Source of the DNA: Cetorhinus maximus
Taxonomy: Eukaryota
Direction of reading: 5' to 3'
DNA: 64,000 bases
NCBI RefSeq assembly: GCF_964194155.1
Contig: NC_135886.1
Span: 73,842,001-73,906,000 of the forward strand
Under the pieces are notes generated by a model, which did not search any database, had not been told where the DNA came from, and saw only the letters and a list, made by a program, of their open reading frames with translations. Below, in pieces: positions 1 to 13,600 of the stretch; the stretch's first letter is position 1; each line of letters starts with the position of its first letter. The position numbers were made by a program, and so were the translations under genes.

Positions 1-615
1 AACCTCATCTTCCGATTAGGCATTTTACAGCCTTTTGGACTTAACATTGAGTTCATCAACTTGAGACCATGAACTCTCTCCTCCATCTTCACCCTTTTTT
101 TCAAAATGTATTTTTAATTTTATCTCCTTATTTTTATTTATTTTTATTAATTTATTAGTTGTTTTATCCCCATTTCTATCCCCTTTTTATCCCACTTTCT
201 ATCCTTTTCCCCACCACCACCCCTTCCCCCCACCCTAGCCTCAAAGGACCATCTGTTACTTGTTCCATGTTCTTTCACAGAGTGCTTACCTTTGTTCTGC
301 TATGATCACATTCTGATTTCTTACCTTTGTACCACTATTAGCACCTTTTTAGCCCTTACCACTACCATTAATGATCCCTTTGTCTTTTTGTTCATGACAT
401 CTTTGTCAATCTCTCCTTTGCCCCCACCTATCACTGGTCTTCTATCCAGCTTCACCTGCTGCACCTCCTTAAACAGTATAAATTTCATCACATTTCTACT
501 TCCCTTTAGCTCTAAAGAAGGGTCATACAGACTCAAAACGTTAACTCTGTTTGTCTCTCCACAGTTGCTGTCAGACCTGGTGAGTTTTTCCAGCATTTTC
601 TGTTTTTGTTTCAGA
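1..615 (+). mobile_element. Penelope-like element 3' fragment (end of GIY-YIG ORF, 3' UTR/pLTR, degenerate hammerhead)
   Basis: 1-72 translates LIFRLGILQPFGLNIEFINLRP*, paralogous to the end of the GIY-YIG ORF at 6514-6583; 500-615 matches the tail at 6918-7025. Confidence 0.8.
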
Positions 616-857
616 AAATCCTATAGTTGCCATTAATAAGTAATATTATTATATTAATGTAGTATATATATATTATTTATATATATATATATGTAGAGAT
701 AATTAAATAATATCCATTTAAGTCATATCATTTGGAACTGTTTTCCTCTCCCTCTACTTTATGTAACACATGCCTCCCTTCCCCTTCCCTTGTTGGGTTG
801 CTGTCCCTTTAAATGTGTAACTTTTCATTCCCACCATAGTCTCGCCCCTCTCTCCCC

Positions 858-4600: not shown

Positions 4601-7600
4601 AAATGTGGTAGGAACATCCCTCAAACAAAAATGAGATATAGGAGTAGTTATTTTGTTTCTTGTTGGTGATTGAGGGAAGAATATTCAGCTGGGAGAATTT
4701 CGTGCTCCTCTCTGATGCCAGGTGTTCCCTTAATTGTTACACCATAACAGTCAGTTGGGAACTTTCTTTAATATCTTACCTTAAACACATCCCCCTGCAA
4801 CGTATTGTCAGATTACATTATGAACTGACATCTTGCTGAAGTTTAAATCTGCAGTCTTCTGATCTGGAGGTGAGTGTTACCAAGCTAAATTATAAGCAAC
4901 TTTATTTTGTTTCCATCCCTTGGGCCTTCCATAACTCCTATAATATGTTTTGACTGAGTGATGGCTGTTTCCTAGCTTCTCCTAACATGCTCTGAAATGG
5001 AGTGGCTGACATGTGACTAATGATGGCCCAGGGGAAGTGCTTTGCATCTGCATATTACCCTCCAAAGGTTGGACAGCCTCCAATATGTCCCTGAACCAAC
5101 CTGTAAATTGTGTTGGTATAATAAAACAATGCAGTCACTGACTTCTGTAAGACTGAAAAAATGCAATACTCTTCGCTCTCCATGATTTACAAAGGAGTCT
5201 GAGGCATTTTCTCAAATGGATTTATCACTTGTATCATTATTGTTTACAACAACTTGTATTTGTATGGTGCCTTTTAATGTAATAAAATTCCCCAAGACAC
5301 TTCAAAGGAGCATTGAAGAACAAAGTATGGCACCAAACCACAAAAGGAGATATTAGCTCAGTTGACCAAAAGATTGGCTAAAGAGGTAGGTTTCAAAGAG
5401 TGTCTTAAAGGAGGATACCACAGTCTGCACCTGTGACTTCAACACTGTTTAATTGCATCCTATGGTTATAGATCTCAAATGTCAAAAAAACATAATTATA
5501 ATAATGGACAGTGGGACACTATCTTTCTTGCATTTTTTGTATCTAATTTCACATGCATAGTACCCATCTTTAACATAACTATATACCTCACATTTGGCAT
5601 TAGCATTTTCCTGTGGTGTTGGTATTGGTGTTCGTCTGTGCTCTTATTGGTTTGGAGTCCTCTAAATTTTGTTTATTGTCCATTTGATATGCATACATTA
5701 ATGCATTTGGCCTGTGTGAACATTTATCTTTTCCTGCAATGTATATATCATTCCCCTGTAAATTGCATCAATTCTTATTCATTTGCACTGCATGAAATTT
5801 GATAACTAAGAATAGCATACAAAATTATCCTGTTTTATTGATTATTCAGTTGGGTAACTGGCAAATTTTGTCTCCCAGCCGTGTAAAATGTGTTATAGTT
5901 TATTTTTATTATTGTGATTGAATCAGTGATTAATGGGGGAGGGGTGGGTAGACTTATCAGGATTCTGCTGGAATTGAGGTCTTGCAAGAAATTGTTCTTG
6001 GATGCCTTTAAGGTATTGAAATCGTCTTCAGGAATGCTCCTGAACTGACTGACCTTTAATTATCAACCAGACAATGAATGTTGCCAAATGGAGTAAAAGA
6101 ATCCCTTCCTCCTTTCCCATTTCTCCCTTCAGTACAGGACCCAAAGCTTCCCAGGAGCAACAGGATAATACAGTAGAGCAAAAGAAGCCTAAGCTGCCTG
6201 TGCCACCTGTGGAAAAAGCAGCTGATGTAGATAATTCAACAGACATAAAGGTAAGGAAGCAGCATTTCACTTGCATTTCCCCTAACTTAGTCTACTGCAT
6301 TCGTCGCTCCCAATGCGGTCTCCTCTACATTGGAGAGACCAAACGCAAACTGGGTGACCGCTTTGCAGAACACCTGCGGTCTGTCCACAAGAAAGACCCA
6401 AACCTCCCTGTCGCTTGCCATTTTAACACTCCACCCTGTTCTCTTGCCCACATGTCTGTCCTTGGCTTGCTGCATTGTTCCAGCGAAGCCCAACGCAAAC
6501 TGGAGGAACAGCACCTCACCTTCCGACTAGGCACTTTACAGCCTTCCGGGCTGAATATTGAATTCAACAACTTTAGATCTTAAACTCCCCCTTTTTTTTC
6601 AATAATTTATATAGATTCCTCTTTTCCCACCTATTTCCATTATTTTTAAATCTACAACGAATACTTTGTTAGTCTTTCCACCCCACCCCCACTAGAGCTG
6701 TACCTTGAGTATCCTGCCATCCATTCTTAATTAACACTTTTCTTAGATAATATCACCACCTTCAACACCTCTTTGATCCTTTTGTCTGTGACATCTTTTG
6801 ATTATCTGCTCCTATCACTGCTTGCTTATCCCCACCACCACCCCACCCTCAACTTCTCTCTCCCCCCGCCCCCCACCTTAGACCAGCTTATATTTCACCT
6901 CTCTCCTAACTATACTTCAGTTCTGCCGAAGGGTCATGAGGACTCGAAACGTCAACTGTTTTCTTCTCCACCGATGCTGCCAGACCTGCTGAGTTTTTCC
7001 AGGTAATTCTGTTTTTGTTTTGGATTTCCAGCATCCGCAGTAGCTTTTAGCTTTTTGTTTTTAAAGGTAAGGAAGCTTGGAATCTGAGTCCACTGCTACA
7101 TCTCAAAGTACTTTCTACTTAAAAATTAATTCATTATGTTGTGACTGCCCACATGGCCAGCACAACAATTATTCTGTACCAGCATCTTCTCTCAAATGAA
7201 GAATTGATAAGGCAACAATTGTAATTGAGAAAATATTGGAATTTTAAACATGACCAAGCTGGCATTGTGCATTTTTCTTTCGACATTGGATTCCTTTACG
7301 TATACTCATTAGGGTGTTGAAATTACTGTGGCAGATGCAAATGGGAGCATATGTGAATTAACTTAAAGAAAATGCTATGCACTACTTAACCCACCACCCA
7401 GTGATGTTAACAGAGAAATCCACTGGACACCAAGTTACCTGAAGCCCTAGTAGCAAAGTTGCTTTTCATTGTGTGTTTCACAATGCAGCTATATGGTTGA
7501 GAATGAGCATATAAATGCCTATAGTTTAATCTTGAGATGCTGCTTGGCTCTTGAGTTCATCTGAACCTCTTGAATAAAATTATTAATCATTTTCAGCTAA

Positions 7601-10600
7601 CCCTAATTCTTGCATACTGCCACTCAAGTGAACTGTTTGAATTCAATATTTTACTTTAAAAATGATATACCATTGAATTGCAGAATAGTTCAAGTTTCTT
7701 TCACTGAAAGTGAATGTGCCCATTCTGTTAACCTAATGAAAGGAAGTGCACTGTCAGAAGTGTGTCTGCAATGCCAACAACCGGTGTTGTTGAGACTTTA
7801 AACTCTTTTTGGGTACCATGTTATACTTTGCGCTTTGACTCAAGGAAAATTCTGATTGGCAAAGATGAGCTTTCTTGGATGAGTGCAACTCCAATAACAC
7901 TTGAAGCCGGACACCATTCAGGACAAAACAGCCTGTTTGGCACTCCATCCACCATCTTTAAACATTAATTTCCTCCACCACCGTTGCATAATGGTGGCGG
8001 TGTGTACCATATACAAGATGTAGCAGAAACTTGTCAACCCTCCTTAGACAGCTTTCAAACCTGTGACCTAGAAGGACAAGGGCAACTAGGGATGGGCAAT
8101 AAATGCTAGCAGAGCCCACACCCTGTAAATGAATATTTTTTAAAAAACAATGGGAACACCATCACCTGCAAGTGTCCCTCCAAGCCACATACCATTCTGA
8201 CTCGGGACTATATTACTGTTCCTTCACTGTCACAAAAACCTGGAACTCCCTCCCTAACAGCACACTGTGAGTGTACCTACACCCTGTGGACCTCAGCAGG
8301 TTAAGAAGGCAGCTCACCATCACCTTCTCAAAGGCAATTAGGGATGGGTAACAAATGCTGGCCTAACCAGTGAAGCCCACATCCCATGAAAGAATGAAAA
8401 TTGCTGGGTTTTCAGGCAGTAGTCCCTCTTTTCCACTGCATGCCAAAAATTCAAAATGGTCCATAGCCAATTTGGAGAAAGTTTGTGGTTGTGGGATTTT
8501 TTTTTCCGATCATTTTTCACAAAGTGAATTTAGAAGAAAAAACACTATCCTTGAAAAGAATTCTAAAGCAAAATATGTGCATTCTAAATTTTTTTAAAAG
8601 GCACTGAGATGAAAGATGCTTGACAGGGTTGTCCGATGTGGTACCTCTGTGTTATGAACATGGAGATTAAAAATAGACACAAGCAACTGGGTAAATTTGG
8701 CCAACAGCTTTGCCAAGTCCTGAGGAGAATGCAGCAGGGTAGTTATTTTATTTGAAGTCCAGCAAGGTGACCAACTGATTAGGGAAGTGTATTGTTGAGT
8801 CAGTTTGCTATCTATCAAATTAGCAGATACCCTCATGTAACTATTTTGTAACAAACCAGCCCTAGATTCATCAGATTCCCTGCACTCTTTGGCAACTGTT
8901 GTGGGATACTCCTTGCTAGGTAATGAGTACTGGCTTCTCTATAATATTCTGATAGAGTCGAACTGAAACTTATAAAAGTGTAAGAACAGAATTGTAATAA
9001 ATATCACTGCGATTTGTAAAAGGAGAACAATTAATTAGAAATTCTATGGCTTGTAGTTGTCCGTCTATGATGAAGTTGACGAAGAGAATTTGAATGACCC
9101 ATTCCTGAATGCAATCTATGCATATGATATATTCAGCTACATGAAGGAGAGGGAGGTAAGCAATCTATTACTTTTGGAACCTTCCTGCTTGCTTCCAAAG
9201 AGCAGCATTGATCATGTATGTTTTGAAACAAGATTGTTGGGATTGCTGGATTTTGCAGGTGGTCTGTGTTTAATTCTCCACACTTTTATCACCCCTCACT
9301 TTTATACCCAGTGCACTGCATTTGCAATCTAACATTGAAGAGCTATTTTGAATCCAGGTGTAAATGGTAAAAGCATTCTACAGAAGCTCACAAATGCACT
9401 GATGCCACTCGCAGGTTTGTTATCTTGCAAATGAATTTTCTTCATAGAATAGATAATTGCTTTGTTTTTGACCTTCAAAAACAGTTGGATTAATATCTGG
9501 CTTGTAATGAAATTGTAGAGCTAATGTAAGTTTTCAGACTGGACAGTGACTGTTTCTGTGATAGAAAAATTGTAATCCTGAATATAGAAAATGTGAGAAT
9601 TAATTGATACTCTGTTACTTTGATTATTTCGCAGCACTTTATCTTGGCCATTTAGATGGATTCCATTGTACAATTCATTCCATCACAGACTGTTTGTTTG
9701 GTTAAGTGGGGGGGCTTGAGGGGCCAAATGGTCTTAACTTTGTACTTTTGTGTGTATTCAGCTGCAAATACAACTCAAGTGCAAAATCCATTTTTTGTAT
9801 TGATAACTGAGTTGAAAGGTAGAAACTGGGAACAATTGGAAGCTAAAATTTTCTGATGTGCTTATGTAGGTTTTGTCTGGGCTTTGACTGTTGGATTTGT
9901 AACAAATTAATGTTTAGATACATCCTGATCCACTCCATAACCATGTGATTCTTGGGTCTGACAGGAGAAATTTGTTCTGAAAGGCTATATGCAAAAGCAG
10001 CCTGACCTGAACATCGAGATGAGGGCAATCTTGGTAGACTGGATGGTCGAGGTACAAGTAAGTGCAGTATTCACCTTGAGCTTTGAACTGCTTTTTTTTA
10101 TCAGTTGGTTGCTTTGAAATACGTTGGCTTGTTTTCATTTTTGGTTCTATCCTCCACCCAAGTGGATATTGTACTATGTGCTATTCATGGCCAAGAGGGC
10201 TGCCAGATTTGTAACCATAACTTCTCAAGACTATGTGCAGTGGAGTATTGAGGGAAATCTGAGTGACTCCAGTTCTTTATCTTTCTCTCTTCTTTCCCCA
10301 AGTCTTCTGCCTCTTTCCTATCCCCTCACCAACATCCCAACTTCATCAGCTTGGAGGTGTGAATTGTTTCTCCTCCCTTTTAGAGCTTTCCTTGTGGAAG
10401 GACTGAGGTTGGAAGTTCAGTATGTTGTGGAAGGACTGAGGTTCAGGTGCTCTGACAGCTTTTTCTTTGGATTGATTTAATTTGGATACTTCATAAGGGT
10501 GAATCCAAAGGATTAAATTGATGGTAGAAATTGTACTATTAGCTTTTTTCGTGAAACATGATAAACTCAGCATTTTCATTGTGTGGTGCCTGGAAGTACA

Positions 10601-13600
10601 TTCAAGATGCCAATATTTTAGGGTTTCAGACAAATTTAGCTGAGCTTAGAAACCAAAAATCAAATGGTTTATTGTAATATGAGCATTCAGATTATTTAGG
10701 AACCTACTGATGGGCAAATGTATTTTTGTAATGTACTAGCTGCAAAGTGAGTAATTTCCATGTTTTTATTTTGACCTGAGGTTTTAGTCATCTGCCAATC
10801 TCTATAGATTTCCCTCACTAACTGCAGTTAGTCTCAAGATGTGCCTATTCAAAATTTTCTTTTGTGGCATTAAAAGGAGAAGACATTCGGCATGTTTGAG
10901 TAGATCATTCAGCCCTTCAAACCTGCTATGCCACTTAATAAGACTATCACAAGCCCTCTGTAACCTCCTCAAGCTCTACAACCCTCTGATTTAAGTGTTC
11001 CTCTTGTGCATCTGGGAATGATTTCAATCATTCCACAGGCCCTAAGTTCTGGAATTACCATTACTTCCCTAAAACACTCTTCCTTAAAGCCTGCACCTTA
11101 GAACAGATGATCAAAAGCTTAGTCTAATATCTCTGTGGCTTGCTGTTAGATTTTGTTCGATAACATTCCTGTGAAGCATCTTGGGACTTTTCTCCGTGTT
11201 AAAAGGTGCTATATAACTGCAAGTTGTTGTAGTATTTTCTATTTATAAAAGCCAATGTTCCATTAGCCTTGTACCTGATGACTAATTTTTTAGTGGACCC
11301 CTACCTCTCTTAGGACCCCCTGCTGTTCCTAGCTTTTCACAAGGCTGGGTGTGACCCTGTTGTGATTAATTTCATCTAATGTTTACAATCCTATAGAAAT
11401 TCATTGACCTAAATTTATTTTTATTTTCAAAAGGAAAATTTTGAGCTGAATCATGAGACTCTGTACCTGGCAGTGAAGCTAGTGGACCATTACCTGGCAA
11501 TGACGGAGTGTATGAGAGAAACACTGCAACTTCTGGGCTCTACTGCAATCCTCATTGCTGCAAAATTTGATGTAAGCAATTTTACCAGTCTTTATGAATC
11601 TAATTCTTTGGCCTCCTTCCTTCCACTCTCCATAAACTTGAGCTTATCCAAAATACTGCTGCCCGTATCCTAACTTGCACCAAGTCCTGTTCACCCATCA
11701 CCATATCATGGCCAGATTCCTCCTTATCTCAATACCTTTCTCCAGCCCTACAACTCACTGAAATGCTGCATTCCTCCAACATTGGCTCTTAAACATTCCT
11801 CACTTTATTTACCTCACCTTTGGTACCTGTATCTTCAACTGTCTAGGCCTTATGTATTTCAATTCCCTCCCTAGATCTCTCTTGCTTCCTTTTTAAGATG
11901 CATCTTAAAACCTCATGTCTCTTTATTTGACTCACCAGTCAATTTTTCTCGATTATGCTCCTATGAATCATCTTATGATGTTAACAGTGCTAAATAAATG
12001 TTTGTTTATGCTTTAATAGAACAGTCTTTGGGAACGAAGGAGAGATGGCATGTGCTATCACTGAGGGATATGGTATGTGGCACAATGAGCAGAGACACTT
12101 GTTTTTGTTCTGTGCAGTTTGCTAACCTCTGGTATGGCATCAGAATGAAAACCAACCTCATTAAGTTAACTTCCTTATGCTAAAAGGATAGCAACTGTCA
12201 TTAAATCTGTTAAAACGGCAACAGAGTGCCAGGCATTAAGCTGTACGATTCCCCTTCTCTCCCATCCACACGTTCATGCCAAAAAAGTCATTTCCTGATC
12301 TTGGCTGCAATGTCAAGTTGCACTTCGGGCTACTGTAATGCACCATTTTGTGAGTAGTTTAGGATGCTGTAGGGAAAGGTACGTTGACCAATAAAGGGTA
12401 ACCATTTAAATCCTTATCTACTGCACCATAGATATGCAGTCTGTGCTGCTGGGAAGTGACTATTGTTGGGAAGGGGACTTGGTGCCTTCAGTGTGGATTG
12501 GGTTGAATACACATTTACCATTTTTTAGGAGCGGTGCCCTCCATGCGTGGATGATTTCTTGTACATCTGTGATGATGCATACCAAAGGGAGGAACTGCTT
12601 TCAATGGAGGTGAACATTCTCCGATCCCTTAAGTTTGACATCAATATTCCTGTGGCTTATCGATTCTTGAGAAGATATGCAAAGGTTAGTCACCTTTTTC
12701 TAATGTGTTATCTATTATTGGAACTAGAACTTTTGATGTCACTTGCCTGAGTGTACTAGTGGGTGAACATGCTCAATTGACCTCAAGCATACAATTTGTT
12801 TTTACTTTGTTTTTCTCCTCCATTTCCTGAAGGCACTTCTGTTTCTGGCATACAGTTGTATTGGTACCATGCCCAAATGGGTAGTCTTTTTTTTTTCTAT
12901 TTGCTCAGTAGTTAATCACCTGAGATCATAAGAATATCAATGGTGGGGAGCCATCTGGTTCTGCTGGGGCTGAAAGATGATGCAGGTTGTTGGAGCAGTG
13001 CAGAGAGTTTTTCTCATGCTTTTTTAAAAATTCATTCACGGGATGTGGGCTTTGCTGGCTGGACCAGCACTTATTGCCCATCACTAGTTGCCCTTGAGAA
13101 GGTAGTGGTGAGCTGCCACCTTGAACCGCTGCAGTCCATTTGGTGTAAGTACACCCACAGTGCTGTTAGGGAGGGAGTTCCAGGATTTTGACCCAGCGAC
13201 AGTGAAGGAACGGTGATATATTTCCAAGTCAGGATAGTGAGTGACTTGGAAGGGAACGTCCAGGTGGTGGTGTTCCCATCTATCTGCTGCCCTTATCCAT
13301 CAGGATGGTAGTGGTCGTGGGTTTGGAAGGTGCAGTCGAAGGAGCCTTGGTGAATTCCTGCAGTGCATCTTGTAGATGGTACATACTGCTGCTACTGTGT
13401 GTCGATGGTGGAGGGACAATGTTTGTGGATATGGTGCCAGTCAAGCAGGCTGCTTTTTGTTCTGGACAGTGTCAAGCTTCTTGTGTTGTGGGAGCTTCCC
13501 TCATCCAGACAAGTGGAGAGTATTCCATCACACTCCTGACTTGTGCCTTGTAGATAGTGAACAGGCTTTGGGGAGTCAGGAGGTGAGTTACTCGTCGCAG

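Follow-up and report, generated by a model that had tools for sequence, protein, structure and literature searches.

The insertion of a Penelope-like element (PLE) that starts ten bases inside intron 4 of the cyclin B3 gene (CCNB3) of Cetorhinus maximus duplicated the donor of exon 4 within a 15-bp target-site duplication (TSD), and we consider that the upstream donor probably does nearly all of the splicing, with the copied donor acting as a near-silent pseudo-site. Two exons in the window (the whole stretch of 64,000 nucleotides that was analysed) matched Pfam Cyclin_N, identifying the host gene as a cyclin, and the best database match of this gene was XP_078403179.1, a 411-aa cyclin B3 from Cetorhinus maximus. 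Comparison of XP_078403179.1 with the window by tblastn yielded nine blocks equating to ten exons, with mismatches confined to the block edges. The exons bordering the insertion, the element and the two copies of its target site lie as follows:

6133..6250, plus strand: CCNB3 coding exon 4, 118 nt, placed by tblastn and by acceptor and donor contexts; its spliced translation equals the database record.
6246..6260, plus strand: upstream copy of the TSD, with 5 bases in the exon and 10 in the intron; the final 5 match the element too, and the 15-mer is single at empty sites.
6261..7061, plus strand: 5′-truncated PLE, in the sense orientation relative to CCNB3, with the end of the GIY-YIG frame, a 3′ region or pseudo-LTR and a T-rich tail, delimited by family alignment.
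7062..7076, plus strand: downstream copy of the TSD, carrying the second AAG/GTAAGG at 7066/7067, from sequence identity and site contexts.
9057..9155, plus strand: CCNB3 coding exon 5, placed by tblastn of XP_078403179.1.

The 15-mer TAAAGGTAAGGAAGC is found at 6246-6260 and 7062-7076, 100% identical at a spacing of 816, and these are its only two copies on the plus strand of the window, against ~1.6e-6 copies expected by chance per 2 kb. The direct repeat adjoins the element at both ends, with 801 bp between the repeats, and the authentic exon 4 donor, AAG/GTAAGG at 6250/6251, recurs at 7066/7067, where the T-rich tail of the element precedes the downstream copy and generates an AG/GT acceptor-donor junction. 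These positions had been proposed by an initial annotation and were confirmed in the sequence, as was its identification of the intervening 801 bp as a PLE, from the family alignment and the GIY-YIG end. Both junctions of the element are microhomologous: GAAGC stands just before the start position of the window copy in 23 of 25 longer copies, and TA continues past the 3′ end in 22 of the 24 copies that reach that end. A plausible course of insertion would comprise staggered nicks made 15 bases apart by the GIY-YIG endonuclease, target-primed reverse transcription from the tail of the element, and joining of the 5′ end through a 5-base microhomology.

The initial annotation had suggested a search of other species for an empty allele with a single 15-mer, and such sites were present in two related organisms. 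In run X5 (related organism B), a 1,163-nt contig (record 17) joined 6129-6245 directly to 7062-8106, and in run X13 (related organism C) record 9 joined 5903-6260 to 7087-8106 with 8 letters between. Because each of these empty sites carries one 15-mer only, all 15 bases are target sequence. In organism A, two contigs of run X1 covered the junctions, one the left (5900-6282, depth 75.8) and one the right (7038-7903, depth 70.7), both free of mismatches, next to a depth of 89.5 for a flank contig. No empty-allele joint was present in X1 among the matches listed, and among these matches the depths likely reflect a real, homozygous insertion. In X21, another organism A sample from a capture library, depth was zero over the unique flanks of the insertion site. 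At position 9011, within intron 4, the window reads G, and the X1 contig, X5 and X13 read A, a mismatch that reflects either heterozygosity or an error in the assembly.

The annotation had also envisaged that the duplication might be an artefact of assembly. No one contig spans the whole element among the matches listed, and X1 may be the very sample from which the window was assembled; each junction is nevertheless crossed without mismatch at the depths given above, the window copy of the element has private changes, and the length of the duplication and its microhomology agree with the family, which together make an artefactual insertion or duplication hardly credible. Thus, given the empty site in two relatives and the X1 contigs over both junctions, the duplication is a true TSD and the insertion is lineage-specific.

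The element belongs to an abundant family. A similarity search returned 4,457 candidates, of which 40 were scored, with 47 places listed, and exact matches to the 35-nt tail numbered 9,386 genome-wide, setting the size of the family at at least 9,386 copies. The window copy is 5′-truncated, since the element extends further upstream at 25 of the 29 other loci examined, where the match begins at the first base of the window copy; it also bears a ~35-bp internal deletion in a C-rich tract. A long natural copy (L034) encodes one 889-aa frame with a reverse transcriptase (RT) followed by a C-terminal GIY-YIG domain (Pfam RVT_1, E 2e-5, and GIY-YIG, E 7e-4, both under Pfam’s cut-offs), and the copy in CCNB3 keeps only the GIY-YIG end of this frame. 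Inverted 5′ pieces are present in four of the five long copies, and L056 shows a partial tandem, its tail continuing into the frame of the next unit. The linker CPRRRCNTC is present in 5/6 frames from five long loci, one frame showing a Cys-to-Tyr change. As a zinc-finger linker of the form CX2-5CxxC before the endonuclease is described as absent from Penelope and Poseidon in the available part of PMC8557442, the family would be Neptune-type, an endonuclease-bearing (EN+) PLE, in an assignment made by the linker motif alone. Two older, diverged pieces with a similar PLE tail lie at window 1-620 and about 2070-2280, upstream of CCNB3 intron 1 and within it. At L033, the element forms an almost perfect inverted duplication of 4.75 kb, whose two 2.4-kb arms are 97.9% alike.

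In their general organization, the copies resemble canonical EN+ PLEs of the Neptune type, which, as far as the accessible sections of PMC8557442, PMC4209133 and PMC11167929 describe them, share the single frame with RT and C-terminal GIY-YIG, the CX2-5CxxC linker, partial tandems, inverted 5′ pieces, 5′ truncation and a minimal hammerhead in the pseudo-LTR. The family differs from them in that its hammerhead core mostly has C at position 6, and its placement in the clade is through the linker motif. The copy in CCNB3 has one such motif:

6918..6958, plus strand: candidate minimal type-I hammerhead motif, single copy, from a pattern match, with a palindromic ACGT helix III and C in place of A at core position 6.

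The hammerhead pattern matched 79 times in other loci of the family (L002-L073), and in 68 of the 79 matches core position 6 was C, not A. We also noted a compensatory change in helix II, from T-A to C-G, between subfamilies. Together these hint that the variant may have been kept by selection. The C at position 6 is reported as a natural variant favouring manganese in the text available from PMC7151607, and minimal hammerheads are described in fish PLEs in the corresponding portion of PMC4209133. A search of 6200-7200 against Rfam did not detect the hammerhead and returned two chance matches only, and the monomer fold of the hammerhead region was no more stable than shuffles (z 0.35). Self-cleavage within the intron was rejected as the main effect of the insertion, a single minimal motif having shown no cleavage in the part of PMC4209133 at hand.

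Duplications of comparable length occur elsewhere in the family. We sampled contig C1 by taking its first 30 matches to the tail (L044-L073), of which 7 ran off the locus and 23 were usable, and 13 of these 23 copies with both ends visible were flanked by duplications of 13-16 bp. A control with mismatched pairing gave no duplication of 13-16 bp in 506 comparisons, the longest being 10. Twelve of the 13 copies with 13-16-bp duplications were flagged as 5′-inverted, a flag that the window copy does not carry, and plain truncated copies had duplications of at most 10 bp. The 15 bp found in CCNB3 are therefore within the range of the family, yet long for the plain-truncated subtype to which the window copy belongs. 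Across the whole sample, an inverted 5′ piece was flagged in 18 of the 30 copies, and among those with both ends visible, 12 of the 14 inverted copies had duplications of 13-16 bp as opposed to 1 of 9 others, which suggests that two 5′ joining routes leave duplications of unlike length.

The insertion at the donor is likely due to chance and ordinary for this PLE family. Donor-like AG/GTRAG sites no more than 10 nt behind a tail were seen at 8 places including that in the window, compared to ~11 expected from base composition, and targeting of donors by the family was rejected on this count; assuming 200,000 donors, about three duplications over a true donor would be expected genome-wide. Inspection of five of the seven other donor-like places established no real exon end at any of the five; L039 lies in an RT-like fragment. 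At L042:1248-1367, the motif duplicated by a copy of the family is strongly donor-like and follows an open stretch of 37 codons; a weak search found no homologue of the open frame before the motif.

With respect to age, an alignment of 22 copies, chosen as best matches, showed the window copy to depart from the column majority at 10 of 801 positions, 6 of them private, so that its divergence amounts to 0.75-1.25%. The flanking intron diverges by 4.0% from organism B and 4.2% from organism C, or about 2% per lineage. We infer that the insertion postdates the split from B and C and took place about a third to half of the way back to it. The initial annotation had called the insertion recent, which holds in the relative sense that it is younger than the split; a copy diverged by 0.75-1.25% is not very recent. 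CpGs are retained and the TSD is perfect, as that reading had noted; the 18 CpGs of the window copy are typical of the family (14-19 in 21 other copies), and the perfection of the TSD was rejected as an age marker, given that a 15-mer would survive intact with a probability of 0.74-0.83 at 1.25-2% divergence.

Which of the two identical donors is used was approached from the reference protein, from intron architecture and from published precedents. XP_078403179.1 joins the ...TDIK of exon 4 to the LSVY... of the exon at 9057, which corresponds to use of the upstream donor as predicted by a gene model. The introns flanking exon 4 are both long, at 1,667 nt and 2,806 nt, and exon definition should apply for this reason. 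According to the excerpts of PMC9225289 available to us, minigenes spliced by exon definition used solely the upstream member of a pair of identical donors; natural donor pairs of equal strength show just a 60% preference for the upstream site in the same excerpts. The intron of human F7 carries repeats of an identical donor that are silent, the most upstream one being used, and two other genes, 6-16 and CBS, use downstream duplicated donors, as reported in the accessible part of PMC1557585. Low-level use of many AGGT sites in introns is reported in the available portion of PMC10809524. By analogy with such cases, which are mammalian and involve donors much closer to each other than 816 nt, we expect the upstream donor to do nearly all of the splicing. 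The 118-nt exon 4 would be defined across its own acceptor and the nearest donor, as in mammalian experiments, and the whole element would be removed together with the 2.8-kb intron.

The copied donor is moreover not the best-matching site of its kind within the insertion. A further donor-like site lies in the element:

7000..7010, plus strand: donor-like site of the element, CAG/GTAATT, with its GT at 7003, scoring 9/11 U1 matches and present in 6/7 aligned copies.

On a crude count, out of 11, of matches to a U1-pairing consensus, the site at 7003 scores 9/11 vs 8/11 for the copied CCNB3 donor. By the same count, 14 GT sites between 4470 and 17590 have at least 8/11 matches, just 4 of them real donors; the decoys are thus several, the copied donor among them. 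The possibility that 7003 serves as the donor of a 5′ intron of the element itself was unsupported, the sole acceptors before the ATG of the frame lying 29-48 nt downstream.

Use of the distal donor at 7066 would extend exon 4 by 816 nt, to a 934-nt exon, and translation would continue as follows:

6251..6583, plus strand: predicted extension of the exon 4 frame into the GIY-YIG remnant, ending at a stop after 110 aa, from frame translation and copy comparison.

The stop would fall 483 nt before the 7066 junction, leaving a product without a cyclin box, and a message of this kind would likely be a target of nonsense-mediated decay (NMD), any rare distal product being degraded on account of its premature stop. 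The GIY-YIG remnant has three amino-acid changes, one of them at a conserved cysteine. The window copy alone has Cys-to-Arg at 6305 and Ile-to-Thr at 6519, and the former alters the CxxC that separates the GIY motif from the YIG motif, a cysteine pair which we take to be part of a CCHH finger. The initial annotation had foreseen either a cyclin/GIY-YIG chimera or an NMD-targeted isoform; the frame does run into GIY-YIG and does stop prematurely, but the two are one product and not alternatives.

That annotation further regarded the two donors as competitors and as a ready-made switch, in which the addition of 816 nt to exon 4 and the level of a fusion between the N-terminus of cyclin B3 and GIY-YIG would tune dosage. 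The donors are identical across 15 bases, the frame stays open into GIY-YIG, and intron-defined donor pairs favour the downstream donor in the available part of PMC9225289. Against this stand the long flanking introns, which point to exon definition, and the need for a 934-nt internal exon whose formation would skip the better-matching donor at 7003. The early stop, the absent cyclin box and the conserved cysteine lost from the remnant all speak against a working fusion; the chance of an in-frame read-through is already 1 in 3, and the alternative site is absent in organisms B and C. With the reference protein also representing the upstream donor, the proposed switch is unsupported, and we regard it as highly improbable.

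The upstream donor thus remains the favoured site. The T-rich, sense-strand tail of the element may also supply acceptors, and two routes that were absent from the initial annotation, and that both look weak, would combine them with the copied donor. The first involves this site:

7004..7031, plus strand: acceptor-like site of the element, a pyrimidine tract followed by CAG at 7029-7031, from site contexts; its use is predicted.

Acceptor 7031 and the copied donor would bound a candidate 35-nt exon (7032-7066) containing a stop codon. Such a poison micro-exon, ending at the 7066/7067 donor, would shift the frame, expose the message to NMD and reduce cyclin B3. With 0.75 pyrimidines, a CAG and a distance of 27 nt to the preceding AG, acceptor 7031 is within the range of the ten real CCNB3 acceptors (pyrimidines 0.44-0.94, 16-62 nt to the preceding AG); the donor has the same sequence as a functional one, and a premature stop arose in all six cryptic-exon options tested. 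Yet a 35-nt exon is small for exon definition, three further AGs lie between 7031 and 7066, and the site is missing in the relatives and is not a conserved regulator. We consider it unlikely that a measurable share of transcripts includes this exon.

The second route is recursive splicing, in which a first step from 6250 to 7067 would remove the element and one TSD copy, and the rebuilt donor would then be spliced to 9057. The geometry is exact, the product being the empty allele and a normal protein; pyrimidines amount to 0.81 before the AAG, as before the real AAG acceptor at 11433; and AGGT sites in repeats can be both donor and acceptor, on the evidence of the section of PMC10809524 available. 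The previous AG, on the other hand, is only 14 nt away, below the range of the ten real acceptors (16-62), and the step would be superfluous, the normal intron already taking the element out. In addition, vertebrate recursive splicing begins with an RS-exon defined by a downstream donor, as stated in the accessible text of PMC6224609, and this donor is absent here, 7068-7499 being devoid of any GT with at least 6/11 U1 matches on the crude score. Recursive splicing is very unlikely, about as improbable as the switch. That one insertion built a working dual-use splice site, allowing either precise excision with the donor rebuilt or inclusion of the 35-nt poison exon, is unlikely; if true, this site and the filled and empty alleles in relatives would offer a natural experiment on the birth of a recursive site or poison exon.

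The preferred reading, of an upstream donor in use and a near-silent copy, finds its closest parallel in the pseudo-sites of F7 intron 7, where, in the available part of PMC1557585, an exact repeat of the donor likewise reached the intron via a boundary-spanning duplication and only the most upstream donor is used; CCNB3 is likened to F7 by sequence, and its donor use is predicted. F7 differs in having a 37-bp minisatellite with 5-9 close copies, whereas CCNB3 has one TSD copy, 816 nt away and behind a pyrimidine tract. Dual-specific and recursive sites, as presented in the accessible portions of PMC10809524 and PMC6224609, share with the CCNB3 copy an AG/GT after a pyrimidine tract, its location in a direct repeat and a donor that can be rebuilt, but the CCNB3 copy has no downstream RS-exon donor and its AG-free zone is short. 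Introners and transposon-derived introns, in the text of PMC11282704 available, resemble the present case in that the TSD supplies a splice-site dinucleotide and clean removal is possible; they are mostly DNA transposons that form new introns inside exons, many per family, in contrast to one retroelement copy in an existing intron, from a family that shows no splice-site bias. The insertions described in the accessible parts of two case reports (PMC12277486 and PMC13500218) involve no duplicated donor, and a literature search outside subscription journals and supplements found no published report of the CCNB3 insertion or of a donor covered by the duplication of a PLE.

Taken together, the insertion is probably an ordinary, tolerated one and not a dosage switch. 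Its significance is most likely minor, this being one of thousands of copies; it provides a clean presence/absence marker for the lineage and a naturally occurring example of a long-range donor pseudo-site. Should use of the distal donor prove true, the insertion would show a cell-cycle gene gaining a recursive site or a poison exon in a single, dated step, which could be compared with relatives lacking the insert.
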